Shown piece after piece: positions 23,841-51,660 of a DNA stretch of 64,000 nucleotides. The position numbers and the translations under genes are program-made. Numbering within the stretch: the first letter of the stretch is position 1; every line of letters begins with the position of its first letter. The DNA is from a phage: the sequence record PZ534515.1; one strand, 5' to 3'. The notes under the pieces are model-generated. The model made no database searches and was not told where the DNA came from. It was given only the letters and a program-made list of their open reading frames with translations.

Positions 23841-23855
23841 TCAGGAGATTGTTAA

Positions 23856-26647: not shown

Positions 26648-26854
26648 ATGATGTACAGTCGCGAATTGATGGTTACAACCAACGTTAACACAAAGGCAAA
26701 ACGTTTTTATATGCAAGTGTGCGGCGCATGGCGTAGAATATCAGAAGCTGATTATTGCAACTATGTAGAAACGGCAATTAACTCTAATTGCTACCTAACA
26801 AAGAATACAAAGCGACATATAAAACAGACAGCGGTTTACTATTACGATATATAA
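26648..26854 (+). CDS. hypothetical small protein (array gene 1)
   Basis: ATG with GGAG upstream; followed by a type A module. Confidence 0.45.
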   Translation: MMYSRELMVTTNVNTKAKRFYMQVCGAWRRISEADYCNYVETAINSNCYLTKNTKRHIKQTAVYYYDI

Positions 26855-26942
26855 AAAGTACTTTACAAGGGGCTTAAAAGTTGATATCTTAAGCCCCAGA
26901 TAAAGAGCTTTACTAACTTACCTTAAACTAGGAGATTCTAAA

Positions 26943-27323
26943 ATGGCTTATCGTGCACCGAAATTCATCAATAAAGACAACTTCCGCAACGCACTGGAGA
27001 AGTCACTTGATGAAAAATTTAACGGTAAATTGATTATTGTTCACGCATTCAATTTTAAGTATGATATTAATGGGAATAAAATCAACCATTACACGGCAAC
27101 CATGATAGATGGTACACTATCAAGTGAAAAAGCCGTACTGAATGCACTTGCTGGACGCGGTAAAAACCTGATAAAATGTGATAAGCGACGTTATCAGGGT
27201 GGCGCATATGGTTATGATGATGCTGTTTACCATCTTGAAAACATGGGCTATTCAGTGGAAAAAGCTGGAGTGTCTCAAATAATCGGCAGTGACGGCTATG
27301 TGACAATTTTCAAAATTAACTAA
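26943..27323 (+). CDS. hypothetical protein (array gene 2)
   Basis: Conserved leader taaactaggagattctaaaATG. Confidence 0.5.
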   Translation: MAYRAPKFINKDNFRNALEKSLDEKFNGKLIIVHAFNFKYDINGNKINHYTATMIDGTLSSEKAVLNALAGRGKNLIKCDKRRYQGGAYGYDDAVYHLENMGYSVEKAGVSQIIGSDGYVTIFKIN

Positions 27324-27792: not shown

Positions 27793-28305
27793 ATGAAAAC
27801 TGTAGACGCTACCTTTGAAGTTGTAAAAGAAAAATTTTCCATCATTTACGAAGCTGTCAATTGCTACGAAGCAAGCCATAATCTTGATAATTGGAAGTTT
27901 ACAGATGACCATCAAGGCGGTGTGACTATTAAAAACCCCAACTGTCAGCGTAATGGATTTAAATATGCAATTCCTTTACATTACAGCCTTAAACAGCTTT
28001 CAATTGACTATGCAAAACAAGGCCGGGAAAATCCATCGAAAGAGGCTTACATCAGCTTACAGAAAGAACTAGAAAGAGATTTAGAGGCTTCAGAATATAA
28101 CATCGCCGCGAAAGTTGTAGATGCAAACGGTAGCACGGTTTTAGAGAGTTTTTATATTGGTTATGCTTTCGATTGGTGCTACAGTGACGGCGATGATTTA
28201 GATGACAGACTAAAAGAGGAAGTGAACAACGCAGACGCAGAATCTGAAGTATTAGAACGCTTGGAAGCATTAAAAGATTCAGTGATGAATATCTTTAAGA
28301 ACTAA
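27793..28305 (+). CDS. hypothetical acidic protein (array gene 4)
   Basis: Conserved leader. Acidic residues clearly outnumber basic ones by eye. Confidence 0.5.
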   Translation: MKTVDATFEVVKEKFSIIYEAVNCYEASHNLDNWKFTDDHQGGVTIKNPNCQRNGFKYAIPLHYSLKQLSIDYAKQGRENPSKEAYISLQKELERDLEASEYNIAAKVVDANGSTVLESFYIGYAFDWCYSDGDDLDDRLKEEVNNADAESEVLERLEALKDSVMNIFKN

Positions 28306-28397
28306 ATAGATTTCTTTACACGGGGCTAACAAGCTGGTAGGATAGCCCCAGATAAAGAGATTTATCAAATAAAGCCCTTAAACTAGGAGATTCAAAA

Positions 28398-28694
28398 ATG
28401 AAATTATCAAATCAAGTGCGTGAAAATCTAAGCAAATTACTCAATAAAATTGATTTTATCGAGACATCAAGAAATAGTCATGATGTTATGGAATGGTTAC
28501 ACGGCAAAATAAAAGGCCGTCGCGTAGTAATTTGCTTATGGAATAGTTGCAGGGAGTATAAAAAGCCTGTATTGCAAATTAATGTTTATGATGATACTTT
28601 TAAAAGTCCTGTTAAATCTGAAAGTGATTTATTAGAAGCTTATGAGATAACTGTAAATGGTAAAGTATCACGCAGAGAGGTAACACCATGCTAA
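28398..28694 (+). CDS. hypothetical protein (array gene 5)
   Basis: Conserved leader. Confidence 0.5.
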   Translation: MKLSNQVRENLSKLLNKIDFIETSRNSHDVMEWLHGKIKGRRVVICLWNSCREYKKPVLQINVYDDTFKSPVKSESDLLEAYEITVNGKVSRREVTPC

Positions 28695-29020
28695 TGATGG
28701 GCATCACTGCAATCATCGCCATTATAGCACTTTATAAGGCTTACAGCGCCTACAATCTGGCAAGTAAGGCAATCACGCAACAGGTCAATAATAGCCTTGT
28801 AATGAGCTTTCTGGAGCGTTTAAGTGATGAGCAAATAAAGCGGCTAGAAATGAGCTTCAGATTCAAAGCGAAAACCTATCAGATAAGTGATATCTTCAAA
28901 GATGATTTTCAGTTAGTCGATGATTATAATTCACTGATAAATGCTTTAAATATCAGTGACTTAAAAGACTACTACGCTGTAATTGTTCAAGAATTGAGCA
29001 AACGAAAAAATTTCTCTTGA
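28688..29020 (+). CDS. hypothetical membrane protein (array gene 6)
   Basis: ATG overlapping the upstream stop; N-terminal TM helix MLMMGITAIIAIIALY. Confidence 0.45.
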   Translation: MLMMGITAIIAIIALYKAYSAYNLASKAITQQVNNSLVMSFLERLSDEQIKRLEMSFRFKAKTYQISDIFKDDFQLVDDYNSLINALNISDLKDYYAVIVQELSKRKNFS

Positions 29021-29107: not shown

Positions 29108-29380
29108 ATGTATACTACTAACAACGGTCGTACTCTAAATGTAACTTTGCGCCACTATGTGAACGGTGTAATGCACTTCGAGGATTTACAAGCCGAACAA
29201 CATATCTTAGATTGGCAACTTGCAGGACTCCAAAAAACTGCTACAGGATACGGGAAAAAGATTCCAACCAGTTGGAAAGTATACTACGAAGGCCGTTTGC
29301 GCAGAATTTATCAAGATGTGCATAGCAATAGCGCAACAAGTTACATCATGGTAAAAGGCAAAAAGCTGCATTTAGTATAA
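29108..29380 (+). CDS. hypothetical protein (array gene 7)
   Basis: Type B leader. Confidence 0.5.
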   Translation: MYTTNNGRTLNVTLRHYVNGVMHFEDLQAEQHILDWQLAGLQKTATGYGKKIPTSWKVYYEGRLRRIYQDVHSNSATSYIMVKGKKLHLV

Positions 29381-29466
29381 AGTACTTTACAAGGGGCTTA
29401 TAGTTCGATAAAGTAAGCCCCAGATAAAGAGCTTTACCACTAAATCCTAAATTGGAGAACTTAAAA

Positions 29467-29871
29467 ATGGCTATTAATAATCGCGAGTTATCAATCTTAA
29501 AAGCACGTTTGACCGTTAACCGGATTAATGTTATTACGTCATCAGCACCGGACGAAACATTGCACAACATTATTGGGAAGATTCAAAGCGTTATCTTAGA
29601 CGTTGAAAACGTAAAAAACTCATTGGCTGACGTTGCAGCAGGTATCACGCTAGACGGTGCACAATATGAAATGACCGACATGTTAGGCAAATCTAAGGTA
29701 ATGAATAAAGAGCTTGATTTGAAAATGTTTCGATTTGCTGTTAAAGTGTGGCTATCTGTCGAGTATGACGCTAATTTTGCAATCGCTGACTTTTTCGCAA
29801 CATGGTTGCAACGTAACTTAACAAATCACGATTTTCGTAATATCTGTGATGCAATTTACGCAGAACTATAA
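29467..29871 (+). CDS. hypothetical protein (array gene 8)
   Basis: Type A leader places the ATG at 29467; the track start at 29452 is probably too far upstream. Confidence 0.45.
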   Translation: MAINNRELSILKARLTVNRINVITSSAPDETLHNIIGKIQSVILDVENVKNSLADVAAGITLDGAQYEMTDMLGKSKVMNKELDLKMFRFAVKVWLSVEYDANFAIADFFATWLQRNLTNHDFRNICDAIYAEL

Positions 29872-29880
29872 AAATTTTTG

Positions 29881-29909
29881 TTGACACTGGTTTTCAGATA
29901 GATTAAATT
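29881..29909 (+). promoter_or_regulatory. putative sigma70-like promoter (TTGACA-17 bp-TAAATT)
   Basis: Hexamers read from sequence inside the array. Confidence 0.35.
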
Positions 29910-29972
29910 ACACATCAACGGGGCTGGAATGACCTTCCCCACTAAATAAAGTCCTAAACTGGAGATTCAAAA

Positions 29973-30176
29973 ATGGCTATTATTAACGGTTTAACCATTG
30001 AAACTACACACATCAAAGATATTAAAGTTGGTGATGTAGTCCTTTCCCACGGCGTAGAGAAAACTGTTACTGCAAAGGATATCAAAGAGGATTCTTTCAT
30101 GGGTAGGACTCTCTTCGGTGATTCTTATTGCTTAGGTTATCTTGCAGTTTTAAAAGTTGTCAAAAATAACCGATAA
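29973..30176 (+). CDS. hypothetical protein (array gene 9)
   Basis: Type B leader. Confidence 0.5.
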   Translation: MAIINGLTIETTHIKDIKVGDVVLSHGVEKTVTAKDIKEDSFMGRTLFGDSYCLGYLAVLKVVKNNR

Positions 30177-43033: not shown

Positions 43034-44449
43034 ATGAGCGAGTTATTTAAACATGCGCACCTTCATGCAGGTCGAACTGAAAATGGTGCTGTAAACCATA
43101 CTTCATCAATGTCTGCTCTGGTAGACTTCTACAAAGCCGCTGGCTCAAGCCGTAGCAATGTAGAAATCTTACCAGACCTGTTCTACAAAGCTTTGCGTGA
43201 GGATGTTGATGTTGCAGTTCGTATTTTACTGCATATGCGAGATGTGCGAGAAGGTATGGGTGAGCGTAAAGCTTTCCGAACTGTTTTACTTCAAGCAATT
43301 GAAGATAAAGTTTTAGAACCTACACAGGTTCTCCGCATTATGGATAAGATTGCAGAACTTGGTCGTTTTGATGACTTCAAAATCTTTGTAGGTACTCGTT
43401 TTGAGACAGACGCCTTCAAACATTTAGAAGCAGCATTACTAGACCCTGCAACAGCAGGTTTAGCAGCTAAGTGGTTACCACGAGTAAAACCACGCCACAA
43501 ACAGTTTGTAAAACGTTTCTGTAAGTTTGCAAACTTAAGCGAGAAAGAGTACCGCACACTGTTATCTGCACTGTCTGATACGGTTGAGCAAAAAATCTCT
43601 GCTAATGAGTTTGGTAAGATTGACTACAGCAAGATTCCTTCACTCGCTGCTGCACGTTACCAAAAGCTCTTTAACCGTAAAGATGGGGAACGTTACAAAG
43701 CTTACATCGAGTCACTATCAAAGGGTGAGGCTAAGATTAACGCTGGTGCTGTTTACCCATATGATGTGATTAAATCTATCAAGCATGGTAATGCAGATGT
43801 TGCTAATGAGCAGTGGAAAGCACTACCAAACTGGATGGCAGAAGGTGAGAACATCTTGTGTATGACTGATGTTTCAAGCTCAATGTCTTGGGTGAATCTT
43901 GGTTCAATCACTGCCCTTGATATTGGTGTATCACTTGCCTTGTATGTAGCAGAACGCAATACAGGCTGCTTTAAGAATGAGTTAATGGTTTATTCAACAA
44001 ACCCTCACTTCATTGAACTGAGTGGCGATTTACAAAACCGTCATCGTCAGGTGATGCGTCATGTTGAATATGGTTCAACTAACTTACAAGCAGCTTTTGA
44101 CCGTATTCTTGAAATAGGTAAGAGAAACAACTTGACTCAGAAAGATATGCCAAGTAAGCTTATCATCTTCTCCGATATGGAGTTCAATCAGGTTGATGGA
44201 GCTAACGGTCGTACAAACTTTGAAGCAATTCAGAGTAAGTGCAAAAAAGCTGGATACGAAATGCCACAACTGGTATTCTGGTACTTAGCAAACCGTAATG
44301 GTACTTGCGAAGTATCTGTTAAGGATAATGGTGTAGCAATGGTATCAGGGTTCTCTCCAGCCACTTTAAAAGCTCTGCTTGGTGGTGAGAAGTTTGACCC
44401 AATCAGCGTAATGCTCAAAGCAGTAATGATTGACCGTTACATCTGGTAA
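43034..44449 (+). CDS. vWA-domain protein (MIDAS motif), possibly TROVE/Ro60-like
   Basis: ILCMTDVSSSMS fits the vWA MIDAS D-x-S-x-S motif. Alpha-helical N-terminal half. Located immediately upstream of the tRNA bank. Confidence 0.45.
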   Translation: MSELFKHAHLHAGRTENGAVNHTSSMSALVDFYKAAGSSRSNVEILPDLFYKALREDVDVAVRILLHMRDVREGMGERKAFRTVLLQAIEDKVLEPTQVLRIMDKIAELGRFDDFKIFVGTRFETDAFKHLEAALLDPATAGLAAKWLPRVKPRHKQFVKRFCKFANLSEKEYRTLLSALSDTVEQKISANEFGKIDYSKIPSLAAARYQKLFNRKDGERYKAYIESLSKGEAKINAGAVYPYDVIKSIKHGNADVANEQWKALPNWMAEGENILCMTDVSSSMSWVNLGSITALDIGVSLALYVAERNTGCFKNELMVYSTNPHFIELSGDLQNRHRQVMRHVEYGSTNLQAAFDRILEIGKRNNLTQKDMPSKLIIFSDMEFNQVDGANGRTNFEAIQSKCKKAGYEMPQLVFWYLANRNGTCEVSVKDNGVAMVSGFSPATLKALLGGEKFDPISVMLKAVMIDRYIW

Positions 44450-44467: not shown

Positions 44468-44496
44468 TTGACAATGTGTTTGATACCCTTTAATAT
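44468..44496 (+). promoter_or_regulatory. sigma70-like promoter (TTGACA-17 bp-TAATAT) flanked by an inverted repeat
   Basis: Hexamers read from sequence; aagggtat / ataccctt inverted repeat brackets the -35 and spacer. Upstream of the first tRNA. Confidence 0.55.
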
Positions 44497-44559
44497 GTTC
44501 TACATAGAAACGAAATGAGAGCTTTTCTAAGATACTGAAAAAATATTTTAAAAAAGTTC

Positions 44560-44589
44560 TTGACAACCACTAAAAAATAATGTTAAAGT
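44560..44589 (+). promoter_or_regulatory. second putative promoter upstream of the tRNA bank (TTGACA-17 bp-TAAAGT)
   Basis: Weaker -10; accact / agtggt inverted repeat. Confidence 0.35.
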
Positions 44590-44615
44590 GGTTACATAGA
44601 GTTTGAAAAATTTAT

Positions 44616-44692
44616 CTCTGTTTAGCTCAGCTTGGTAGAGCGTTCCGTTTGGGGCGGTAAGGCCGGAGGTTCAAGTCCTCCAACAGAGACCA
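44616..44692 (+). tRNA. tRNA-Pro (anticodon TGG), CCA encoded
   Basis: Hand-folded: acceptor ctctgtt/aacagag, D-arm gctcagcttggtagagc, anticodon loop ttTGGgg, T-arm ggagg-ttcaagt-cctcc. Confidence 0.7.
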
Positions 44693-44699
44693 AATTAAT

Positions 44700-44777
44700 G
44701 TTCCAGTAGACAAAATGGTAAAGTCACCACTCTTTCAAAGTGGATATTTGAGGGTTCAAATCCCTTCTGGAACGCCA
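44700..44777 (+). tRNA. tRNA-Glu (anticodon TTC), CCA encoded
   Basis: Acceptor gttccag/ctggaac, anticodon stem ccact/agtgg with loop ctTTCaa, T-loop ttcaaat. Confidence 0.7.
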
Positions 44778-44868
44778 GTTTTGACAGAAGACCAATTACA
44801 GCAAACTTAATCTTATTCATCTGAAGATAAATCGGACAAAGAAGAGATTTGGTCTGGTCATTAAGAAT

Positions 44869-44945
44869 TGCGGGTATAGAGAAAGGGCGTCTCACATGTC
44901 TCATTAGCATGGTATCGGCAGGTTCGACTCCTGCACCCGCCTCCA
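44869..44945 (+). tRNA. tRNA with anticodon CAT (Met/fMet or Ile-lysidine); 1:72 position unpaired
   Basis: T-arm gcagg-ttcgact-cctgc; acceptor tgcgggt/acccgcc with first-pair mismatch; anticodon loop ctCATta. Atypical features, so lower confidence. Confidence 0.45.
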
Positions 44946-45022
44946 ATTTTGCAGAAGACCGTATTCAGCAACAAACTACTTTTTGCGGATAAAAGAAAAA
45001 ACACGGTCTGGCAATGTATTAA

Positions 45023-45099
45023 GGTTAGGAAGCACATAAGGTATGTGCGGTCGCCTGTTAAGCGAATGGCACAGGGTTCGAATCCCTGACTAACCGCCA
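45023..45099 (+). tRNA. tRNA-Asn (anticodon GTT), CCA encoded
   Basis: D-arm gcac-ataaggtat-gtgc, anticodon loop ctGTTaa, T-arm caggg-ttcgaat-ccctg. Confidence 0.65.
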
Positions 45100-45170
45100 A
45101 ATTTAGGGGAGAAGCGATTGCTCACCGATTTGTAAGGTGCAAGTCCTTAGCCTGAATAGAATAATAAAAT

Positions 45171-45258
45171 GTGTCGTTATCCCGTAGATGGTAGCGGTGG
45201 GGACTGTAAATCCCTTGTCATTGAGACTCGGTAGGTTCGACTCCTACACGGCACACCA
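45171..45258 (+). tRNA. tRNA-Tyr (anticodon GTA), long variable arm, CCA encoded
   Basis: About 85 nt. Acceptor gtgtcgt/acggcac (one GU), anticodon loop ctGTAaa, T-arm gtagg-ttcgact-cctac. Confidence 0.65.
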
Positions 45259-45264
45259 AATAAA

Positions 45265-45342
45265 GGTTATGTAGTTTAATCTGGTTAAAATACTCCCCTG
45301 TCACGGGAGATGATGAGGGTTCAAATCCCTTCGTAACCGCCA
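45265..45342 (+). tRNA. tRNA-Asp (anticodon GTC), CCA encoded
   Basis: Acceptor ggttatg/cgtaacc, anticodon stem ctccc/gggag with loop ctGTCac, T-loop ttcaaat. Confidence 0.7.
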
Positions 45343-45799
45343 AATTATAATAAGTATTTCAAGATGATGTTTTGAGAGGGCTATTTATCCCCTCCCTTAA
45401 AGAGTTCTTACGAGTATTCTTTAAAGGAGCAGAAGACCAAATACAGCAAGTTACTTAAAATTTCAAGCCAATTTAATTTTGAAAAATTTAAAACTTGGTC
45501 TGGCTCAACAAATTTACAGAAGACCGTTTACAGCAAAACTTAAACAATCTATTTCTCCGGTAAAGAAAAGGCGAAGGTTCGATTCCTTCACTCGGCAGAT
45601 GTCGAGTTGGTGTAATGGTAGCACTTAAGATGATAAACAACGGTCTGGTAATTATCTTTGCAGTAGCTTATGTGGCTAATTATGTCGTCCCATGAGTGCC
45701 GATGAATTTCCTTAGCATGATTCTAGATTAGCTTAATAGGAAATGACTCTACAGACCCTTTAGCAAGGTCTGCGTAGGTTACTGCAAAGGTAATTTAAT

Positions 45800-45875
45800 G
45801 GAAGTGTAGCAGAATGGTGATGCGGCAGACTTTTAATCTGACAGGCGATGGGTTCGAATCCCTCCACTTCTACCA
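45800..45875 (+). tRNA. tRNA-Lys (anticodon TTT), CCA encoded
   Basis: Acceptor ggaagtg/cacttct, D-arm gca-gaatggtga-tgc, anticodon loop ctTTTaa. Weak T-stem (ggg/ccc) shared with the paralogous tRNA-Lys(CTT). Confidence 0.6.
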
Positions 45876-45879
45876 ATAT

Positions 45880-45956
45880 GGTTCAGTCGCAGATAAGGTA
45901 ATGCAGGGGTCTCATAAGCCCTATGAATGTGGGTTCGATTCCCATCTGAACCTCCA
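45880..45956 (+). tRNA. tRNA with anticodon CAT (Met-type), CCA encoded
   Basis: Acceptor ggttcag/ctgaacc, anticodon stem ggggt/gccct with loop ctCATaa, T-arm gtggg-ttcgatt-cccat. Confidence 0.65.
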
Positions 45957-45957
45957 A

Positions 45958-46033
45958 GCTGGTATAGTTAAGAAGGTTATAACACTCCCCTGATAAGGGA
46001 ATATCGGTGGTTCGATTCCACCTACCAGTACCA
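45958..46033 (+). tRNA. tRNA-Ile (anticodon GAT), CCA encoded
   Basis: D-arm gtta-agaaggtta-taac, anticodon loop ctGATaa, T-arm ggtgg-ttcgatt-ccacc. Confidence 0.65.
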
Positions 46034-46048
46034 ATTTCAATAAAGTTG

Positions 46049-46077
46049 TTGACATTAACATGTGACCACTTTATAGT
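46049..46077 (+). promoter_or_regulatory. internal sigma70-like promoter in the tRNA bank (TTGACA-17 bp-TATAGT)
   Basis: Hexamers and spacing read directly. Confidence 0.5.
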
Positions 46078-46278
46078 AACCTTAGTTTTCGTTGCGTAGC
46101 GTCTATTTTGCAAATTTAAAATAAATGCAAACGACAATGTTTTTCTGGCAGTAGCTTGATAGGCTAAACACCAGTGAGGTCTTCCAATCCCTCATCAAAG
46201 AATTTGGCGTACTCGCCCACGGTATGATTAATAAGGTGGGCATCTTTAAGGGCTTTCTAAGAGAGTCTTTAAAGATTA

Positions 46279-46355
46279 ATGCACCCTTAGTTCAATTGGA
46301 TAGAGCAACGGTCTTCTAAATCGTTAGTTACAGGTTCGAATCCTGTAGGGTGTGC
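46279..46355 (+). tRNA. tRNA-Arg (anticodon TCT), CCA encoded
   Basis: D-arm gttc-aattggata-gagc, anticodon stem acggt/atcgt with loop ctTCTaa, T-arm acagg-ttcgaat-cctgt. Confidence 0.7.
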
Positions 46356-46499
46356 CAAATAGTTAGCAGATTGCTTAGACGACCTTATCGGGTCTCCGTG
46401 TAAGGAGGTGGTCTGTATCTCATGTTTTCCAGAACATGTAAATAATCTGAGAAGGGGCTTTACAGTGTTGCGAAAATACGGTAAGCTTCGAATTATAGT

Positions 46500-46582
46500 G
46501 TGGGACGATGTTAAGACTCTAAGGCATGAGCAACGGCCTCCAAAACCGTTTCAAAGGGGTTCAACTCCTCCGTCCCATGCCA
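46500..46582 (+). tRNA. tRNA-like gene, probable tRNA-Trp (anticodon CCA) with an enlarged D region
   Basis: Acceptor gtgggac/gtcccat, anticodon arm aacgg(c)-ctCCAaa-(a)ccgtt, T-loop ttcaact. About 7 extra nt between acceptor and anticodon arm; needs a tRNA scanner. Confidence 0.4.
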
Positions 46583-46595
46583 AAGTCTTATTAGG

Positions 46596-46683
46596 GGTAG
46601 GTAGCGGCTAATGGCAGCCAAACAGTCTTGAAAACTGTTGCCACTGTAGAGATACGGTGAGGGTTCGACTCCTTTACTTACCG
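46596..46683 (+). tRNA. tRNA-Ser (anticodon TGA), long variable arm, CCA not encoded
   Basis: 88 nt. Acceptor ggtaggt/acttacc, anticodon loop ctTGAaa, T-arm gaggg-ttcgact-ccttt. Confidence 0.6.
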
Positions 46684-46837
46684 CCTAATAAGATTTAAAG
46701 CCAAGCTTCATTCGGATGTTGCTTTGGTATCCCTCGTGTATTGTCGTACACACTGATAAAGCACCTAGTAGGTGTCACGGAGAAGAGATAATATCAAGCT
46801 CTCCAAAGGTTCTAGTCACCGGATTAAACAAGACTAT

Positions 46838-46862
46838 GCAAAGACCAATTTAGGTCTTTTTA
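46838..46862 (+). terminator. rho-independent terminator inside the tRNA bank
   Basis: aagacc-aattt-aggtctt hairpin followed by TTTT. Confidence 0.5.
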
Positions 46863-46940
46863 GAGGGCTTCTAAGGTTATTACAGCTTGTTGTGGAACCT
46901 TGTTGCTTAGGTTCTTAGAAGTTCTCTAAAAAGATTTAAT

Positions 46941-47017
46941 GCACCTATAGCCCAACTGGTAGAGGCAGCAGACTTAGAATCTGCTCAGTGTGAGTTCGAA
47001 TCTCTCTAGGTGTACCA
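46941..47017 (+). tRNA. tRNA with anticodon TAG (Leu), short variable arm, CCA encoded
   Basis: Acceptor gcaccta/taggtgt, anticodon stem gcaga/tctgc with loop ctTAGaa, T-loop ttcgaat. Variable loop is only about 5 nt. Confidence 0.55.
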
Positions 47018-47024
47018 AATTAAT

Positions 47025-47100
47025 GCAGGTGTAGCAAAATGGTTATGCGGCTGACTCTTAATCAGTAAGACGATGGGTTCAATTCCCTCCACCTGTACCA
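47025..47100 (+). tRNA. tRNA-Lys (anticodon CTT), CCA encoded
   Basis: Close paralog of tRNA-Lys(TTT): acceptor gcaggtg/cacctgt, anticodon loop ctCTTaa. Confidence 0.6.
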
Positions 47101-47106
47101 AACATT

Positions 47107-47182
47107 GGGGTCATAGTTTATATGGTTAAAATTCGAGTTTTGCAAACTTGGGAACTGAGTTCAATTCTCAGTGACTCCACCA
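47107..47182 (+). tRNA. tRNA-Ala (anticodon TGC), CCA encoded
   Basis: Acceptor ggggtca/tgactcc, anticodon loop ttTGCaa, T-arm ctgag-ttcaatt-ctcag. Confidence 0.65.
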
Positions 47183-47188
47183 ATTAGT

Positions 47189-47263
47189 GCATCCATAGTT
47201 TAAACGGGAAAATTACAGTCTTCCAAACTGAGGTTGAGGGTTCGATTCCCTCTGGATGCTCCA
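47189..47263 (+). tRNA. tRNA-Gly (anticodon TCC), CCA encoded
   Basis: Perfect acceptor gcatcca/tggatgc, anticodon loop ctTCCaa, T-arm gaggg-ttcgatt-ccctc. Confidence 0.7.
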
Positions 47264-47269
47264 AACAAT

Positions 47270-47346
47270 GCTGCTTTCGTATAATTGGCTATTACACATC
47301 CCTTGTAAGGATGGAGATGCGGGTTCAAGTCCTGTGAGCAGCACCA
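47270..47346 (+). tRNA. tRNA-Thr (anticodon TGT), CCA encoded
   Basis: Acceptor gctgctt/gagcagc, anticodon stem catcc/ggatg with loop ctTGTaa, T-loop ttcaagt. Confidence 0.7.
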
Positions 47347-47441
47347 ATTCAGAGGTCAAGTGAAAGACCGCTGGTGTCAACTGAAGACCGTAACAAATTC
47401 CACGGAGTTGAGTTAGCGGCACAACTTCAGACCTCTTTCAT

Positions 47442-47516
47442 ACTCGCTTAGTTTATATGGTAAAACATCACCCTTACAAGATGAAGAAAAAGGTTCAAGT
47501 CCTTTAGTGAGTACCA
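47442..47516 (+). tRNA. tRNA-Val (anticodon TAC), CCA encoded
   Basis: Acceptor actcgct/agtgagt, anticodon loop ctTACaa, T-arm aaagg-ttcaagt-ccttt. Confidence 0.6.
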
Positions 47517-47517
47517 T

Positions 47518-47595
47518 GTTCCAGTATCCCAATTGGCAGAGGATGCAAGCTCAAACCTTGTACTAGTGACGGTTCGAATCCGTCTTGGAACACCA
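47518..47595 (+). tRNA. tRNA with anticodon CAA (Leu), short variable arm, CCA encoded
   Basis: Acceptor gttccag/ttggaac, anticodon stem gcaag/cttgt with loop ctCAAac, T-arm gacgg-ttcgaat-ccgtc. Confidence 0.55.
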
Positions 47596-47600
47596 ATTTT

Positions 47601-47676
47601 GCAGGATTAGTTCAAATGGATAGAGCAACAGTCTACGAAGCTGTTAATAGGGGTTCGAATCCCTTATCCTGCACCA
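47601..47676 (+). tRNA. tRNA-Arg (anticodon ACG), CCA encoded
   Basis: Perfect acceptor gcaggat/atcctgc, D-arm gttc-aaatggata-gagc, anticodon loop ctACGaa. Confidence 0.7.
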
Positions 47677-47695
47677 ATTTAAAGAGGCTATTTAG

Positions 47696-48253
47696 ATGAG
47701 ATATTTGAAGTATGCTTCATGGATTTTCCTAGCTTTGTTAGACCCATTGGCAGCAACCTTAGCAGTTATCTTAGCACCTTTTGTAGTTCCATTCTATAGT
47801 GAGAAGAAAGGACATCTACCTTTTGGATTCAGATGGATGGAGACATATGACAACCCCATTGATGGTGATGAAGGTCACATTAAACGATGGGCTAAGATTA
47901 GAAAGATTGGTAAGCTTGGTGTCTATTTGCAGAGAGTTGGATGGCTCTGGAGAAACAAAGCTTATAACTTCTCTTACCATGTGTTAGGAAGAGATATAAA
48001 AGATGTTACTAAGTGGAAAGGTAATATCAACGTAAGCTCTGACCCTGAAGATAATCAGACAGGTTATCTCCTAATGTGGAACAGTAATGCTTGGGGATTA
48101 TTCGCTTTTATCCCATCAATTAAAGTCTTTGGTAAACAATTCTACTGGAGAATTTATGTTGGGTGGAAACTAAAAAGTGTTGTCCCAGAAGAAAGAGCAT
48201 TCTCAAGGGAAAGAGTTATGTTGGCATTCTTTATTCATCCACTGAGAAAGTAA
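47696..48253 (+). CDS. hypothetical membrane protein embedded in the tRNA bank
   Basis: ATG with AAGAGG 8 nt upstream. N-terminal TM helix (WIFLALLDPLAATLAVILAPFVV), Trp-rich. Flanked by tRNAs on both sides. Confidence 0.5.
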   Translation: MRYLKYASWIFLALLDPLAATLAVILAPFVVPFYSEKKGHLPFGFRWMETYDNPIDGDEGHIKRWAKIRKIGKLGVYLQRVGWLWRNKAYNFSYHVLGRDIKDVTKWKGNINVSSDPEDNQTGYLLMWNSNAWGLFAFIPSIKVFGKQFYWRIYVGWKLKSVVPEERAFSRERVMLAFFIHPLRK

Positions 48254-48261
48254 AGATTTAA

Positions 48262-48337
48262 AGGGGATTAGTTTACAAGGTTAAAACCTCGGTCTTTGAA
48301 ATCGAAGAAGTTGGTTCAATTCCAACATCCCCCGCCA
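48262..48337 (+). tRNA. tRNA-Gln (anticodon TTG), CCA encoded
   Basis: Anticodon stem tcggt/atcga with loop ctTTGaa, T-arm gttgg-ttcaatt-ccaac. Confidence 0.6.
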
Positions 48338-48339
48338 AT

Positions 48340-48418
48340 GCTCCATTACTCCAATTGGCAGAGAGGCCAGACTTAAAATCTGTGTTATGTATCGGTTCGA
48401 ATCCGATATGGAGTACCA
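48340..48418 (+). tRNA. tRNA with anticodon TAA (Leu), variable region about 8 nt, CCA encoded
   Basis: Acceptor gctccat/atggagt, anticodon loop ctTAAaa, perfect T-arm atcgg-ttcgaat-ccgat. Confidence 0.55.
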
Positions 48419-48423
48419 AATTT

Positions 48424-48499
48424 AGCGGTATAGCATAACTGTCAATGCAGCAGTCTCTGAAGCTGTCCTATTAAGGTTCAAATCCTTATGCCGCTGCCA
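48424..48499 (+). tRNA. tRNA-Gln (anticodon CTG), CCA encoded
   Basis: Acceptor agcggta/tgccgct, anticodon loop ctCTGaa, T-arm taagg-ttcaaat-cctta. Confidence 0.65.
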
Positions 48500-48522
48500 C
48501 TTCTAAGGATTCTTACGAGAGT

Positions 48523-48598
48523 CTTTAAATGTGGCCTTATCATAAATGGTAATGACCCATGCTGTGAACATGGTCTATACGGGTTCAAATCCCGTAGG
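48523..48598 (+). tRNA. tRNA-His (anticodon GTG), CCA encoded
   Basis: Anticodon stem ccatg/catgg with loop ctGTGaa, T-arm acggg-ttcaaat-cccgt. Confidence 0.65.
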
Positions 48599-48603
48599 TC
48601 ACC

Positions 48604-48679
48604 CCAATTTATAGTCCAAGTAGCTTATATGGTTAAAGCGCGTGTCTGAAAAACATGAGAAGAGGGTTCAAATCCCACT
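48604..48679 (+). tRNA. tRNA-Phe (anticodon GAA), CCA encoded
   Basis: Acceptor agtccaa/ctggact, anticodon loop ctGAAaa, T-loop ttcaaat. Confidence 0.6.
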
Positions 48680-48695
48680 GGACTACCAATTTCAA

Positions 48696-49439
48696 AGGTG
48701 CTTAATGAAAGAGATGACAGAACAAGGTAAGGAGATTTTTAATCTCTTAAAAACCGGTAGAGGGTTTTCTAATCCCCTTATTACTGGTGCAGCAGTTCTA
48801 GGTGGAACCGTAGCTGCCTCTACATCACTTGTAAGCTCTATTAGCTCTGTAACAGACCCTGCAATGAAGGATAAGCTCATTGCTGCTGGACTTACAACAG
48901 TTCTGCTTAATAGCTTTACAACGAGTCTGACAAGCACTACATCAACTACTAAGACATTGACAGATTATGGTCAAAAATCTATTGATGAGTTTTCCTCACG
49001 TATGCAGGTAGCAAAAGGCTACTCCAATGTTATGGGTGCAGCAGGAGAGCAAGTTGGTTGTACACCATTTAGTGGTATTATGGGTGTTGCTACAGAGTAT
49101 GGTCAAAAAGCTATGGATACAATTAACAGCACACTAGATGGCGTTAATGATGTATTAAGTGACTTACAGGATGCTATTGATAAAGGGCTTGATACTATTT
49201 CTGATTTAGCTAACCAAGCTGTTAGTAAGATTAATGAAGGTATCTCGAAGATTACAGCTTATGCAGATGAAGTTGTGCAGATGATTGAAGAAGAAGCTGC
49301 CCTTATTGCAGAGTACCTTAAAACGAATATCAATGGGTTCTTAGCAGGTATCTTACCAGACTGGTTTGACGATGCTTGTAAAACTGGTGTGATTGACACT
49401 ATTGCAACACCAGAAATGAAGAACGCATTACAGAAATAA
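48696..49439 (+). CDS. hypothetical protein (Ser/Thr/Ala-rich, helical) between tRNA genes
   Basis: In-frame ATG just after tRNA-Phe with AAAGG upstream; the track start at 48642 would overlap the tRNA. Confidence 0.5.
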   Translation, partial: RCLMKEMTEQGKEIFNLLKTGRGFSNPLITGAAVLGGTVAASTSLVSSISSVTDPAMKDKLIAAGLTTVLLNSFTTSLTSTTSTTKTLTDYGQKSIDEFSSRMQVAKGYSNVMGAAGEQVGCTPFSGIMGVATEYGQKAMDTINSTLDGVNDVLSDLQDAIDKGLDTISDLANQAVSKINEGISKITAYADEVVQMIEEEAALIAEYLKTNINGFLAGILPDWFDDACKTGVIDTIATPEMKNALQK

Positions 49440-49440
49440 T

Positions 49441-49533
49441 GGAAGATTAACCCTAAAAGGTAAGGGAGCAGTTTGCTAAACTGCCAGTAGCTGAGAAATC
49501 GGTGTACCAGTTCAAGTCTGGTATCTTCCTCCA
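49441..49533 (+). tRNA. tRNA-Ser (anticodon GCT), long variable arm, CCA encoded
   Basis: Acceptor ggaagat/atcttcc, anticodon stem gcagt/actgc with loop ttGCTaa, T-arm accag-ttcaagt-ctggt. About 90 nt. Confidence 0.65.
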
Positions 49534-49537
49534 ATTT

Positions 49538-49613
49538 GAATCCGTGACAGAAATGGATATGTGCCTGTCTGCAAAACAGGTTTATAAGGGTTCGAGTCCC
49601 TTCGGATTCTCCA
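49538..49613 (+). tRNA. tRNA-Cys (anticodon GCA), CCA encoded
   Basis: Perfect acceptor gaatccg/cggattc, anticodon stem cctgt/acagg with loop ctGCAaa, T-loop ttcgagt. Confidence 0.7.
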
Positions 49614-49654
49614 AGTTATTTTACTCTCTCTCAATTAAAATAATAATAATGCCC

Positions 49655-49712
49655 TGCTATAAGTATTCTTCTTTTCGCTACCGAAGAGTATTTTTAGACA
49701 GGGCTTTTTTTA
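49655..49712 (+). terminator. rho-independent terminator closing the tRNA bank
   Basis: gccctg ... cagggc stem followed by TTTTTTT. Confidence 0.55.
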
Positions 49713-49836
49713 CAGAGTTATACTTTATAAGAAGCCTTATACAGTATGTCTCTGACGTACATTGTGGTTTCTCCTTGACGGTCTCTGTACCGTCTTTTTT
49801 AAGGGGAAACATGGTTAATTATTTGGAGAAAACATA

Positions 49837-50037
49837 ATGAGCGAGACCGTTTATAAAGAACTTTATGAAGCTAATAAGAAGCTAGAATTTATGCAGAATA
49901 CTATCATGGCAATTGCAGACAGATTGTCTGTAGCAACAGGTATTGATATCAAAGAAGCATCTATGGATGCACTTCTTGATGCTGTTGATGCAAAGTTCGA
50001 AGTTAAGAAAGAAGAGACTGCTACAGACTCTGAATAA
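49837..50037 (+). CDS. hypothetical small protein upstream of terminase (possible small terminase subunit or partner)
   Basis: 66 aa, acidic, predicted helical. Function inferred from position only. Confidence 0.3.
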   Translation: MSETVYKELYEANKKLEFMQNTIMAIADRLSVATGIDIKEASMDALLDAVDAKFEVKKEETATDSE

Positions 50038-50058
50038 TTCTATTTGCGGAGGTGCTTA

Positions 50059-51660
50059 ATGGACTTAAATGCTGTTAAGCAGAAGCGAGTGGAAGATGTT
50101 AGGAAAGTCCTAGCTGGAGAGTTGGGGCTTTCTGATGAAGTAAAAGAAATTATCAAATCATTCGGTAAAGACCCCTCTAAATTCCTTCCAACTCAAATTC
50201 TGACTTTATTAAGATACACACCAGACCAAGTTAGACTTATCTTCAAATTGATGACTGATAAGAACTATGTAGCCCCTCAGCCGGGTTCTCAAGAGGTCTT
50301 TTTAAATACTAATGCTGATTTGGTTCTCTATGGTGGTGCTGCTGGTGCTGGTAAAACCGCTGCATTGTTAATGGACTCTTTAAGATTTATTGAAGACCCT
50401 AACTATAACGCTGTATATTTCCGTCGAAATACAACACAGTTACAAGGTGGTTTATGGCCTGCTGCAAAGAAACTATTTGGTAAGTTTGGTGGGGTTCCTC
50501 ACGAGCAGAAGATGACTATCACGTTCCCTTCTGGGGCAACTATCAAGTTCACCTACCTAGAACTTGAAAAGCACGCTGAAGGTCATCAGGGTATTGAATA
50601 CTCGGCTATTTACTTTGACGAAGGTACACACTTCTCTGCTTCACAGATTTCATACCTACAGACTCGTCTACGTTCTGGGGCTGAAGGCGATTCATACATG
50701 AAGATTTCCATGAACCCAGACAGAGACCATTTTATTTATGATTGGGTAGAACCATTCTTAGATGAAGAAGGATATCCAGACCCTGAGAAGTGTGGTCGTA
50801 TTCGTTGGTATGTTATGAATGATGGTGTGATGGTCTCTGATTGGGAGAGAGACAAGATTCTTGAGATGTTCCCTCTTGAGATTCCTCAGACATACACCTT
50901 CATCTCTGGTACGATTGATGATAACCCAATTCTTGACTTCTTAGAACCTAAATACCGTGGTAAGTTGGAAAACAACACACCTGTAAACGTTGCAAGACTT
51001 CGTTTCGGTAACTGGAAGGCTCGTGCAGAAGGTTCAAACTATTGGCAAAGACAATGGTGTGAGATTGTTGATTCACTCCCAGAAGATGTGTTTGATGTCA
51101 GAGCATGGGACTTAGCAGCGACTTTACCATCTGAAATTAACCCTAACCCAGACTGGACAGCGGGTGTTAAGATGGGTAAATCTAAAAAAGACGGTTGCTA
51201 TTATATCATTGATGTAGTAAGATTTAGAGATAGACCCTCTGGAGTCGAAACACAAATTAATTTGACTGCTGAAAGTGACGGTAAGCGAACTGGTATTTTT
51301 ATCCCTCAAGACCCAGGCGCTGCTGGTAAATCCTATGCAACATCCCTCATCAGGAAACTTGCCGAGAAAGGTTATCGCGCAAGAGCTAAACCAACAAATA
51401 AAGATAAAGTTACCCGCTTTGCGGGATTTTCTGCTGCTTCTGAAGCTGGACTTGTAAAAGTCTTGAGAGGCAGTTGGAACGAAGCTTACTTTCAAGAACT
51501 TGAAGGTTTTTGTGGTGACGGTAAAACTAAAGATGACCAAGTGGATGCTACCAGTGATGCTTTCAACAGTCTTAACGAAGTTAAATTATTCAAGCCACCA
51601 TCAATGGGTGCTCACACAGACTTAGTGAGAGGAAACCCATATGAGGGGCTTAGACGTTGA
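50059..51660 (+). CDS. terminase large subunit
   Basis: Walker A VLYGGAAGAGKTAAL, Walker B-like IYFDEGTHF, and a C-terminal nuclease region with conserved acidic residues. GGAGG upstream of the ATG. Confidence 0.75.
   Translation: MDLNAVKQKRVEDVRKVLAGELGLSDEVKEIIKSFGKDPSKFLPTQILTLLRYTPDQVRLIFKLMTDKNYVAPQPGSQEVFLNTNADLVLYGGAAGAGKTAALLMDSLRFIEDPNYNAVYFRRNTTQLQGGLWPAAKKLFGKFGGVPHEQKMTITFPSGATIKFTYLELEKHAEGHQGIEYSAIYFDEGTHFSASQISYLQTRLRSGAEGDSYMKISMNPDRDHFIYDWVEPFLDEEGYPDPEKCGRIRWYVMNDGVMVSDWERDKILEMFPLEIPQTYTFISGTIDDNPILDFLEPKYRGKLENNTPVNVARLRFGNWKARAEGSNYWQRQWCEIVDSLPEDVFDVRAWDLAATLPSEINPNPDWTAGVKMGKSKKDGCYYIIDVVRFRDRPSGVETQINLTAESDGKRTGIFIPQDPGAAGKSYATSLIRKLAEKGYRARAKPTNKDKVTRFAGFSAASEAGLVKVLRGSWNEAYFQELEGFCGDGKTKDDQVDATSDAFNSLNEVKLFKPPSMGAHTDLVRGNPYEGLRR

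Follow-up and report, generated by a model that had tools for sequence, protein, structure and literature searches.

Two protein genes within the tRNA bank of a Felixounavirus are more plausibly passengers of the tRNA transcription unit than tRNA factors

Introduction

The locus studied here raises the question of why two protein genes stand within a bank of phage tRNA genes and whether their products act on the tRNAs or merely share their transcription. The window, i.e. the whole 64,000-nt stretch of phage DNA that was analyzed (record PZ534515.1), is Felixounavirus DNA, with 95-97% identity at the DNA level to numerous phages in the databases. The original prediction described two ORFs among the tRNA genes and offered two explanations: the products could be factors that process, modify or repair tRNAs, or they could be cargo that rides on tRNA promoters. 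The genes as such are ordinary. They correspond to ORF48 and ORF49 of phage Felix O1, are found in hundreds of genomes in the sequence databases and are covered by Pfam DUFs. All features of the tRNA region described below lie on the + strand.

Results

Two conserved genes are flanked by tRNA genes

ORF1 (47696..48253) encodes a protein of 185 aa, exactly as originally described, with a single hydrophobic helix near the N-terminus (residues 9-33) and a Trp content of 5.4%. The gene starts 19 nt past a tRNA-Arg gene, is preceded by the SD-like motif aagagg and ends 8 nt short of a tRNA-Gln gene. The second gene had been placed at 48696 with a product of 247 aa. The codon at this position is AGG, which is no start codon, and the start was moved to the ATG at 48705 in agreement with GenBank relatives. 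ORF2 (48705..49439) thus encodes 244 aa, while its description as a Ser/Thr/Ala-rich helical protein could be retained. It begins 16 nt past a tRNA-Phe gene, the SD-like motif aaaggtg precedes the corrected ATG, and 1 nt separates its stop codon from a tRNA-Ser gene. The SD-ATG contexts that had been noted were found for both genes, and ARAGORN and Rfam placed tRNA genes on both sides of each of them.

No motif had been recognized in either protein. Both were found to match Pfam families far above the thresholds, and the earlier impression is explained by the fact that DUF7338 and DUF7217 are curated families without known function. ORF1 matches DUF7338 (PF24027) over its full length (208.2 bits at a cut-off of 27, residues 1-184) and phrog_2143 with an E-value of 2e-80. 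ORF2 likewise yields a full-length match to DUF7217 (PF23854; 300 bits at a cut-off of 29, residues 11-246 of the 247-aa translation) and to phrog_2114 (E-value 1e-111). Matches to RNA-related families were absent for both proteins in Pfam, NCBIfam and PHROGs, the NCBIfam search as a whole had no informative result, and neither ORF matched an HNH, GIY-YIG or LAGLIDADG family of homing endonucleases, the usual ORFs within phage tRNA arrays, in Pfam or PHROGs. A structure-based search, proposed together with the HMM search, revealed no solved relative. The AF2 model of ORF1 (pLDDT 94.9) gave no significant Foldseek match in the PDB (best E-value 0.59, TM < 0.2) and matched only its own family in BFVD. 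The model of ORF2, a helical bundle with a pLDDT of 94, had no significant Foldseek match in the PDB either, and PDB sequence and profile searches with both proteins returned only coiled-coil noise.

The comparison of 22-25 distinct orthologues yielded dN/dS values of 0.05-0.15 for the two ORFs, which confirmed that both are real genes under purifying selection. The concern that the ORFs might lack conservation and a coding signature in relatives is thereby removed. ORF1 is not compositionally foreign, since its GC content (0.378) and GC3 (0.344) fall inside the range of the other genes that were checked. Our literature search returned no paper that mentions DUF7338 or DUF7217.

The tRNA bank probably forms one transcription unit

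ARAGORN identified 26 tRNA genes on the + strand between 44616 and 49613, in agreement with Rfam. The Rfam scan of the tRNA region detected nothing beyond tRNAs, and there were no hidden RNA genes within ORF1 or ORF2. The upstream block of 19 tRNA genes (44616..47676; ARAGORN, Rfam) ends with tRNA-Arg(acg), whose CCA is encoded. It is followed by the 19-nt spacer (47677..47695) that carries the SD-like motif of ORF1. Five tRNA genes (Gln-ttg, Leu-taa, Gln-ctg, His and Phe; 48262..48688; ARAGORN, Rfam) separate ORF1 from ORF2, and the tRNA-Ser(gct) and tRNA-Cys genes (49441..49613; ARAGORN) are located downstream of ORF2.

Two sigma-70-like promoter matches (TTGACA-17-TAATAT and TTGACA-18-TAAAGT with TG; 44468..44589) are found just 5' of the first tRNA gene and likely mark the start of the unit, although they are consensus matches whose number does not exceed the shuffle expectation. 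The only other good sigma-70-like site is located at 46049. The T4-type late promoter motif TATAAATA was sought between 43.0 and 50.3 kb and was not found. A long GC-clamped hairpin (GCCCUG...CAGGGC) followed by U7 at 49651..49711 is likely the intrinsic terminator that ends the unit, and the 217-nt region containing it has a folding z-score of -7.5. A second terminator-like hairpin (GACGGUC...GACCGUC with U6; 49777..49800) is found 5' of a 66-aa gene and the gene for the large terminase (TerL). The spacers of 19 and 16 nt that precede ORF1 and ORF2 are too short to accommodate a promoter. Only 1-19 nt separate the ORFs from their flanking tRNAs overall, and this arrangement implies that both ORFs would be co-transcribed with the tRNAs.

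ORF1 encodes a predicted membrane protein with a conserved soluble domain

ORF1 is predicted to be a bitopic membrane protein (pI 9.9), in which the hydrophobic helix is followed by a basic, Trp-rich alpha/beta domain (residues 40-185). An N-terminal hydrophobic helix is present in 96% of 179 DUF7338 members. Compared with the transmembrane segment, it is the soluble domain that carries the conservation, and the invariant residues are T50, D52, W83, W85, R86, N87, Y90, R152, W157 and K158. The net charge on the N-terminal side of the helix exceeds that of the C-terminal flank in 147 of the 179 members, and the median pI of the domain is 9.5. An N-in/C-out topology with a periplasmic conserved domain is predicted from the positive-inside rule only.

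ORF1 is an accessory gene with varied genomic neighbors

The Erwinia phage Roscha1 encodes a full bank of about 30 tRNAs, and the DUF7338 HMM had no match in 96% of its genome. As this relative has no ORF1 despite its tRNA bank, ORF1 is an accessory gene. The synteny check that had been proposed revealed the gene next to tRNAs in several lineages. Homologues on the same strand directly follow or lie within tRNA clusters in Ounavirinae, in phage Av-05, in Dhaka-, Gelderland-, Karam-like and S13-like T4 relatives and in an uncultured clade. Protein identity to ORF1 amounts to 82% in Av-05, 55-62% in Straboviridae genera and 35% in the uncultured clade, in which the gaps to the tRNAs measure 16-20 nt. 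In a Hafnia phage the tRNA bank is rearranged and the ORF1 homologue lies inside it, with gaps of 24 and 7 nt. The tRNA species that flank the gene vary by lineage, and members located beside tRNAs fall into two distinct clades in a rough NJ tree.

More distant members of the family are found in other surroundings. At over 25 such loci no tRNA is present within 5 kb. Distant members lie 3' of tail-fibre or tail-fibre-assembly genes, with an endolysin gene 0-2 genes further on, and a prophage member likewise lies 3' of a tail-fibre assembly gene. One clade (L075) has the gene between an ORF for a holin-like protein with two transmembrane segments and the endolysin gene, joined by 4-nt junctions. 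In Aeromonas phage Ah1, 2 nt separate the end of the DUF7338 gene from gene e. Bacterial genomes contributed only six loci, all of them prophage-like or on contaminating phage contigs. A fusion of DUF7338 to Gp53-like_C (P0033) on a 1.1-kb contig was set aside as a likely chimera. The contexts of the family as a whole are mixed, with tRNA or early regions, lysis cassettes and one baseplate module, so that no single role is forced upon ORF1.

ORF2 is a core gene upstream of the terminase module

The product of ORF2 is acidic (pI 4.4), rich in Thr, Ala, Ser and Gly and predicted to be an all-helical bundle. A Gly/Ala-rich hydrophobic helix spans residues 25-43, and the cysteines C119 and C225 are invariant. 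In Roscha1 and the Hafnia phage, the homologue follows the last tRNA gene and is itself followed by the 66-aa gene, TerL and the portal gene. No tRNAs are found 3' of it in the Erwinia and Hafnia relatives, and ORF2 appears embedded only because tRNA-Ser and tRNA-Cys stand downstream in this genus. ORF2 is a core Ounavirinae gene located shortly 5' of the terminase gene, and Roscha1 has retained it.

Virion data exist for more distant homologues. In Ackermannviridae, the ORF2 homologues are located in the head/tail region and have no tRNA neighbors at the loci examined. ORF129 of Dickeya phage LIMEstone1 (E-value 4e-28 to ORF2) was detected in purified virions with two peptides and 18% coverage (PMC3296691 Table 2), and gp166 of Salmonella phage Sajous1 (E-value 5e-29) with eight spectra (PMC10892097 Table 6). 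These mass-spectrometry signals are weak and could stem from contamination. The list of proteins obtained by shotgun analysis of whole Felix O1 phage does not include gp49 (Felix O1 paper). The same paper names Gp49 a structural protein from a gel band of 51 kDa and speculates that it is the sheath. This assignment was rejected, as the predicted mass is 25.7 kDa and the protein is absent from the shotgun list. In the Felix O1 macroarray, ORF48 and ORF49 belong to the 5-min class, which is odd for ORF49 as a virion protein, though capsid genes share this class. None of the PDB chains matched ORF2, while chains near-identical to the portal protein of the phage in the window are present (9mt4 and, from Sf14, 9c39). 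This suggests that the ordered virion proteins that have been modelled in close relatives do not include ORF2. For Bas63, 22 of at least 23 gene products were modelled (PMC12609058). The T4 protein Inh, a minor head protein and inhibitor of the gp21 protease that resembles ORF2 in size and position, was considered as a relative and rejected (hhalign probability 0.07%). A SLOG or 'GTP-binding' partner of ORF2 as in Kuttervirus was sought in the window and none is encoded.

Discussion

Alternative explanations

It is very improbable that ORF1, ORF2 or both act on the neighboring tRNAs, be it in processing, modification, repair or protection against anticodon nucleases, and that their position in the bank is functional. 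Such a role would agree with the tight packing of both ORFs and with the existence of at least four phage lineages in which ORF1 shares the strand of adjacent tRNAs of differing species, an arrangement far more frequent than expected for a random gene. It is, however, at odds with the membrane anchor and predicted periplasmic domain of ORF1, with the lack of an RNA-related domain in both proteins, with the many tRNA-free loci of distant relatives, with the persistence of a full tRNA bank in Roscha1 without ORF1 and with ORF2 homologues that are encoded in a morphogenesis region and found in virions. Moreover, the recognizable tRNA enzymes of Roscha1 (CCA-adding enzyme and PseT kinase) are encoded elsewhere in its genome. 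Of the two explanations offered at the outset, the tRNA factor is thus not supported, while cargo on tRNA promoters is supported by the short spacers, by putative promoters at the start of the unit and by ORF1 being accessory and common to unrelated phages. Unlikely as well, if less so than action on tRNAs, is that ORF1 is a class III holin similar to T4 T, which would form membrane holes, release the endolysin and time lysis. The orthologue of phage Mushroom was annotated as 'holin' by the Center for Phage Technology, which described a class III holin with one transmembrane segment and N-in/C-out topology (PMC4392139), and the label was copied into later GenBank records. The predicted topology of ORF1 fits this class, distant members stand immediately 5' of endolysin genes, the order gp12 - DUF7338 - e - orf - asiA(-) in Ah1 parallels 37 - 38 - t - asiA(-) in T4, and the Felix O1-like phages have no established holin (PMC3185647, PMC4837284, PMC6486253). 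Nevertheless, an alignment of T4 T with DUF7338 reached an hhalign probability of 0.13%, and T was rejected as a relative of ORF1. No Pfam holin family matched, and no holin chain was listed among the matches of the model in a PDB set that may not include T-domain chains. T4-like phages with DUF7338 also possess t, and Roscha1 appears to do without ORF1. The family conserves its soluble domain rather than its membrane segment, and the L075 clade has a separate holin-like ORF ahead of the DUF7338 gene. A canonical-looking candidate for a holin (68 aa, two transmembrane segments) is encoded at 9398-9604 of the window. ORF1 itself belongs to a tRNA unit with putative sigma-70-type promoters and to the 5-min expression class in Felix O1. 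The endolysin gene lies elsewhere in this phage group, and proximity to a lysis cassette holds true only for distant members. The same center later identified no holin in the Felix O1-like phage Meda.

For ORF2, a possible though not favored alternative is that the protein is not part of the virion. It could be a non-structural, membrane-associated or assembly and packaging helper expressed from the tRNA operon, e.g. a chaperone- or scaffold-like protein for the terminase-portal module, and its homologues would have been carried over into the virion samples. The missing PDB chain and the missing entry in the Felix O1 shotgun list are consistent with this, as are the borderline hydrophobic helix, the annotation of the protein as 'putative membrane protein' and the conserved place directly 5' of the 66-aa gene and TerL. 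In addition, phrog_289, members of which are labelled 'GTP-binding domain', has a C-terminal half that shows homology to ORF2, and in Kuttervirus a SLOG-family (YAcAr) protein is encoded two genes 5' of the ORF2 homologue. On the other hand, homologues were found in two independent virion proteomes (PMC3296691, PMC10892097), and the LIMEstone authors state that each of their unknown structural proteins has a counterpart in the ViI virion (PMC3296691). A late promoter is annotated 5' of the homologue in LIMEstone1, and symmetric cryo-EM maps routinely miss internal or ejected proteins.

Proposed roles of the two proteins

Our preferred reading, to which we assign a rough probability of 0.55, is that neither ORF is a tRNA factor, and that ORF1 is a mobile, envelope-acting passenger and ORF2 a low-copy, virion-associated core protein. 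Both would be passengers of the tRNA transcription unit. ORF1, having no promoter of its own, would be transcribed within the tRNA precursor. RNase P cleavage at the downstream tRNA together with 3' trimming of the upstream tRNA would then release a short ORF1 mRNA with a 19-nt leader that contains the SD motif. The product would be inserted N-in/C-out into the inner membrane, and its basic, Trp-rich domain would act on the periplasmic face. Rather than being an essential holin, it would most likely modulate envelope events, either by protecting the cell against superinfection or lysis from without or by controlling the muralytic and lysis machinery of the phage itself. ORF1 is a horizontally mobile accessory gene, and the conserved tRNA genes on either side of it probably also provide homology patches for its movement between unrelated phages. 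ORF2, at the boundary of the packaging module, would be a low-copy helical protein associated with the virion, internal or disordered and outside the ordered shell and tail.

A broader proposal is considerably more tentative. DUF7338, a periplasm-facing fold without solved match, may have entered tRNA arrays on two or more occasions, may be expressed there through tRNA 'punctuation' without a promoter of its own and may use tRNAs as portable homology arms among Ounavirinae, Av-05-like phages and several T4-like genera. We regard this as rather doubtful, and the adjacency to tRNAs could be a by-product of the tRNA-e neighborhood in T4-like genomes. A literature search returned no paper that describes a recurrent association of DUF7338 with tRNAs across phage families. 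If the proposal is true, phage tRNA banks would, beyond aiding translation, offer envelope-acting cargo a landing pad and a platform for its expression. The association matters for the question of how accessory genes travel with such banks and are expressed from them. The findings also have consequences for annotation. The 'holin' label that is spreading in GenBank for the DUF7338 gene traces back to an annotation by topology only. Several tests speak against it, and annotators should treat it as unproven. The 68-aa ORF in the window is worth a look as a candidate for the holin of Felix O1-like phages, and DUF7217 is a candidate for an internal or minor virion protein that the recent cryo-EM atlases of Bas63 and Sf14 left unplaced.

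Comparison with known systems

ORF1 resembles the T4 holin T and the regulator RI in having a short N-terminus, one transmembrane segment and a domain of about 150 aa that is periplasmic in the T4 proteins and predicted to be so in ORF1. Some relatives also lie near tail-fibre and endolysin genes and, in Ah1, occupy the position of t in T4. In contrast to T, ORF1 shows no sequence or profile likeness to it, has homologues that coexist with t, is accessory in Ounavirinae and belongs to a tRNA unit instead of a late operon. Superinfection-exclusion or envelope 'moron' proteins with one transmembrane segment and a periplasmic domain include Imm and Sp of T4 and gp15 of HK97. Such morons are small and accessory, are expressed early in virulent phages or encoded after the tail genes of temperate ones, and show a patchy distribution with horizontal movement. 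The distribution of ORF1 fits this pattern, but no sequence relationship is known or came to light, and the tight coupling to endolysin genes in some DUF7338 clades is atypical for exclusion genes.

The punctuation of polycistronic transcripts by tRNAs is known as the mitochondrial model, and tRNA precursors of T4 are processed by RNase P. Both ORFs abut tRNAs in a similar manner, so that tRNA excision would set the ends of their mRNAs. In this case, however, bacterial mRNAs that end 1-8 nt past the stop codon could be translated poorly, and translation may use the unprocessed precursor. For ORF2, the closest comparison is with LIMEstone1 ORF129 and Sajous1 gp166 ('unknown structural protein'), which match over the full length with 27% identity and share its length, its Cys pair and the DUF7217 assignment. 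They differ in their place within the head/tail region, where they have a late promoter and tRNAs are absent, and it is these homologues to which the virion detection applies. Non-tRNA ORFs nested in tRNA arrays have long been annotated, namely the HNH homing endonucleases ORF44, ORF45 and ORF47 of the Felix O1 bank and, within the T4 tRNA region, segB and the tRNA.2-.4 ORFs (PMC3185647). Like these genes, ORF1 and ORF2 presumably ride on the transcription of the array. Unlike the HNH genes of Felix O1, they encode no nuclease domain and hold fixed positions in nearly all Felixounavirus genomes.

Protein genes embedded in the tRNA bank

Matches to window positions 44500-50100 were obtained in 349 phage records, and as the best of these were Felixounavirus genomes at 95-97% identity, the window is assigned to a Felix O1-like myophage. 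ARAGORN identified 26 tRNA genes at 44616-49613, every one on the + strand; Rfam agreed with these calls and detected no RNA family besides tRNAs in the tRNA region. Four gaps of 240-460 nt in this bank (45343-45800, 46033-46281, 46357-46596 and 46685-46941) contained no convincing ORFs and no Rfam matches. At the corresponding places, Felix O1 carries HNH homing endonucleases (ORF44, 45 and 47) and one small ORF.

The original prediction of two protein genes among the tRNAs was verified, save for the start of the second. ORF1 is located at 47696-48253 (+) and encodes, as described, a 185-aa protein. This protein has a pI of 9.9, a Trp content of 5.4% and a single hydrophobic helix at residues 9-33, for which the mean Kyte-Doolittle value is 2.16. 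For ORF2, the predicted start at 48696 proved to be an AGG codon; reading from the first ATG, at 48705, the gene (48705-49439, +) encodes 244 aa, the length given in GenBank relatives. ORF1 is separated by 19 nt from the preceding tRNA-Arg (SD aagagg) and its stop by 8 nt from tRNA-Gln, while ORF2 follows tRNA-Phe after 16 nt (SD aaaggtg) and ends 1 nt before tRNA-Ser. Their Felix O1 counterparts, ORF48 (28262-28819) and ORF49 (29271-30005), occupy the same places among the tRNAs. Both genes are under purifying selection, with dN/dS values of 0.05-0.15 against 25 (ORF1) and 22 (ORF2) distinct orthologues at dS up to 2.3. That no motif had been recognised in either protein reflects their membership of curated families of unknown function: ORF1 belongs to DUF7338 (Pfam, 208 bits; phrog_2143) and ORF2 to DUF7217 (300 bits; phrog_2114). 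Since the genes are long annotated and their families known, the embedded genes as such count as an already known finding.

Transcription and neighbours of the tRNA bank

Sigma-70-like sites were found at 44468 and 44560, immediately 5' of the first tRNA, and the best site of the region (46049-46077, 11/12 matches) lies within the bank gap 46033-46281. A search of 43.0-50.3 kb gave no T4-type late promoter motif. The spacers of only 16-19 nt upstream of ORF1 and ORF2 leave no space for separate promoters, and a gene inside a tRNA array would need none of its own. Both genes are presumably transcribed inside the tRNA precursor, with mRNA ends set by tRNA processing. A long hairpin followed by U7 (49651-49711, +) is located 3' of tRNA-Cys and a second one with U6 (49777-49800, +) between tRNA-Cys and a 66-aa gene (folding z = -7.5 for the region of both); with these two strong hairpins, the tRNA/ORF unit is set apart from the packaging operon. 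The sole expression data are from a preliminary Felix O1 macroarray, in which ORFs 45, 46, 48 and 49 fell into the 5-min class (PMC3185647); as this class includes capsid genes too, little weight was given to it.

The 66-aa ORF (49837-50037, +; phrog_4397, function unknown) lies immediately upstream of the large terminase gene and is almost invariant, with 100% amino-acid identity in most relatives at dS up to 0.27. As the small terminase is without annotation in these phages, this ORF may be a packaging factor. Immediately upstream of the bank, a 471-aa protein (43034-44449, +; Felix O1 ORF42) matches DUF2828, DUF7788 and a vWA domain as well as phrog_850 'RNA-binding protein' (E 4e-182); its gene is missing at the corresponding position of Erwinia phage Roscha1. 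If any neighbour of the bank handles RNA, this protein would be preferred to ORF1 and ORF2 as a candidate. Roscha1 encodes an annotated tRNA nucleotidyltransferase/poly(A) polymerase (26045-27313, -) and a PseT-like polynucleotide kinase/phosphatase (23566-24216, +), both far from its tRNA bank, so that recognisable tRNA-maturation or repair enzymes are not embedded among the Roscha1 tRNAs.

ORF2 as a candidate virion protein

A tblastn search with ORF2 yielded 582 records, with identities of 83-100% in Ounavirinae, 45% in Erwinia Ounavirinae such as Kolesnikvirus and 25-29% over the full length in Ackermannviridae. In Roscha1 and a Hafnia phage, the homologue is located 3' of the last tRNA and 5' of a small gene, the large terminase gene and the portal gene, and two tRNAs downstream of ORF2 occur only in Felixouna- and Suspvirus. 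ORF2 is therefore regarded as a core gene that borders the packaging module and not as an insertion into the bank. The Kuttervirus and Limestonevirus homologues lie between capsid and tail-completion genes, without tRNAs, and a late promoter is annotated upstream of the LIMEstone1 homologue. A YAcAr/SLOG-family protein of 155 aa with the annotation 'GTP-binding domain', Salmonella phage barely gp034 (4293-4760), is encoded two genes upstream of the Kuttervirus homologue. The phrog_289 profile (500 positions) carries the same annotation and matches ORF2 over its C-terminal half (262-499), which suggests that some phages have the SLOG and DUF7217 parts as a fusion; in the window, no homologue of the SLOG protein was detected.

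Two homologues were identified in virions by others. LIMEstone1 ORF129 (27% identity, E 4e-28) is a structural protein confirmed by ESI-MS/MS (25.03 kDa, 18% coverage, 2 peptides; PMC3296691), and Sajous1 gp166 (E 5e-29) was represented by 8 spectra in CsCl-purified virions (PMC10892097). In the AlphaFold2 model of ORF2 (pLDDT 94.0), long helices form a bundle with no significant match in the PDB; C119 and C225 are invariant cysteines, residues 25-43 form a hydrophobic helix rich in Gly and Ala, and the composition of the protein accounts for weak PHROG matches to tape-measure proteins. A virion protein of low copy number, internal or disordered, would fit these data as well as the negative ones that follow. 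A serious rival, which we regard as less likely than not, is a non-structural assembly helper: no PDB chain matched ORF2 even though portal chains near-identical to that of the window phage, which served as control, are present (9mt4, and 9c39 from Sf14; PMC11821841), and 22 of at least 23 Bas63 gene products have been modelled (PMC12609058), both of which argue against a structural role in Ounavirinae. A 51-kDa Felix O1 gel band assigned to 'gp49' (section 2.7 of PMC3185647) was rejected as proof of ORF2 in the virion, as ORF49 is predicted at 25.7 kDa; gp49 is not in the shotgun list of the same paper, and the assignment is explained either by an error in numbering, with the 48.9-kDa gp63 as the fitting protein, or by dimerisation. 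T4 Inh was also rejected as a relative, being unrelated. DUF7217 as a virion candidate without a place in known structures is modestly new.

ORF1 as probable cargo of tRNA clusters

The confident AlphaFold2 model of ORF1 (pLDDT 94.9) combines a sheet of five strands with four short helices and a long one at the N-terminus. Foldseek retrieved nothing from the PDB (best E 0.59, TM <0.2) and DUF7338 members alone from BFVD, and a profile search of PDB sequences gave no match; that no solved relative of this fold is apparent is a modestly new element. In an alignment of 33 relatives, conservation is found in the soluble domain (motifs ETYDNPIDGDxGH, WLWRNKAYNF and GWKLK; invariant T50, D52, G57, W83, W85, R86, N87, Y90, G109, G123, R152, G156, W157 and K158), and P28 is the sole invariant residue of the helix. 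The N-terminal hydrophobic helix is present in 96% of 179 members, and the domain has a median pI of 9.5 and 6.4% Trp. As the N-side is more positively charged than the C-flank in 147 of the 179 (the reverse in 12), the positive-inside rule predicts a periplasmic domain. At 50% identity (E up to 1e-3) the family falls into 908 clusters, almost all of proteins with a single domain and 165-200 aa, and it is nearly restricted to phages and prophages. On a 1.1-kb metagenome contig, the N-terminal half of DUF7338 is joined to a Gp53-like_C tail-fibre domain, probably a recombinant or assembly chimera.

ORF1 matched 557 phage records by tblastn, including Felixounavirus and relatives, jumbo Klebsiella phages and many Straboviridae (55-62% identity). 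A DUF7338 HMM found no match in the 96% of the Roscha1 genome searched despite approximately 30 tRNAs there, so ORF1 is accessory within Ounavirinae. Across lineages the gene repeatedly adjoins tRNAs, on the same strand every time, with the flanking tRNA species varying. In the rearranged bank of Hafnia-type Ounavirinae it is flanked by tRNA-Asp and tRNA-Ser at distances of 24 and 7 nt. It lies within a 14-tRNA bank in the 121-kb phage Av-05 (82% identity), 69 nt 3' of tRNA-Phe with further tRNAs downstream in Karam-like T4 relatives, and approximately 220 nt 3' of a tRNA in the large bank of S13-like phages. It follows the small T4-type tRNA cluster in Dhaka- and Gelderlandvirus (130-240 nt at the closest, other loci to approximately 1 kb), and tRNA-Met by 0.6-1 kb in Pseudoteven- and Slopekvirus and by 16-20 nt, before DNA-metabolism genes, in an uncultured clade (35% identity). 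A rough NJ tree placed the tRNA-adjacent members in two separate clades. In more distantly related members, tRNAs are absent within 5 kb of the gene; tail-fibre or tail-fibre-assembly genes lie upstream and endolysins often downstream. One clade shows a 109-aa holin-like ORF with two TMDs, DUF7338 and endolysin with 4-nt junctions, another tail fibre, DUF7338, an 89-aa TMD and coiled-coil protein and endolysin; a further clade has the gene in the baseplate module, and a betaproteobacterial prophage has it 3' of a tail-fibre assembly gene.

Both proteins had been proposed to be tRNA factors or cargo on tRNA promoters. The evidence supports the latter and not the former. For ORF1, the domain predicted to face the periplasm would be unable to act on tRNA, and tRNA neighbours are lacking in many relatives; its tRNA association is therefore best explained by expression and mobility. 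Conserved flanking tRNAs would give otherwise unrelated phages homologous stretches at which to recombine, and this would explain identities of 55-82% between families. The tRNA-e neighbourhood of T4-like genomes may also contribute some of the signal. The recurrence of the association across phage families is modestly new.

Some GenBank records name the ORF1 orthologue 'holin', a judgement from topology. The Center for Phage Technology, the source of this label for phage Mushroom, where it described a class III holin with one TMD in N-in/C-out orientation (PMC4392139), later reported no holin identified in the Felix O1-like phage Meda (PMC6486253), and the Felix O1 paper names other holin candidates (PMC3185647). 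That ORF1 is the holin of the phage is unlikely: it is unrelated to the T4 holin T (hhalign 0.13%), its model resembles no solved structure, T4-like genera with DUF7338 also have T homologues, Roscha1 lacks the gene in the 96% of its genome searched, conservation is mostly in the soluble domain, and the unit is probably early. The window also encodes other TMD proteins, including a 68-aa ORF (9398-9604, +) for which two TM helices are predicted and whose C-terminus is charged (…KLRELFSKFSKKI), a predicted layout that is canonical class II holin-like. These points led us to prefer an accessory role of ORF1 at the envelope, where it would mediate exclusion, protect against lysis from without or modulate the lysis machinery; that the 'holin' label is so weakly founded is itself modestly new. 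In Aeromonas phage Ah1, the DUF7338 gene ends 2 nt 5' of the lysozyme gene e, and comparison of the Ah1 order gp12 - DUF7338 - e - orf - asiA(-) with the T4 order 37 - 38 - t - asiA(-) puts DUF7338 in the place of t.
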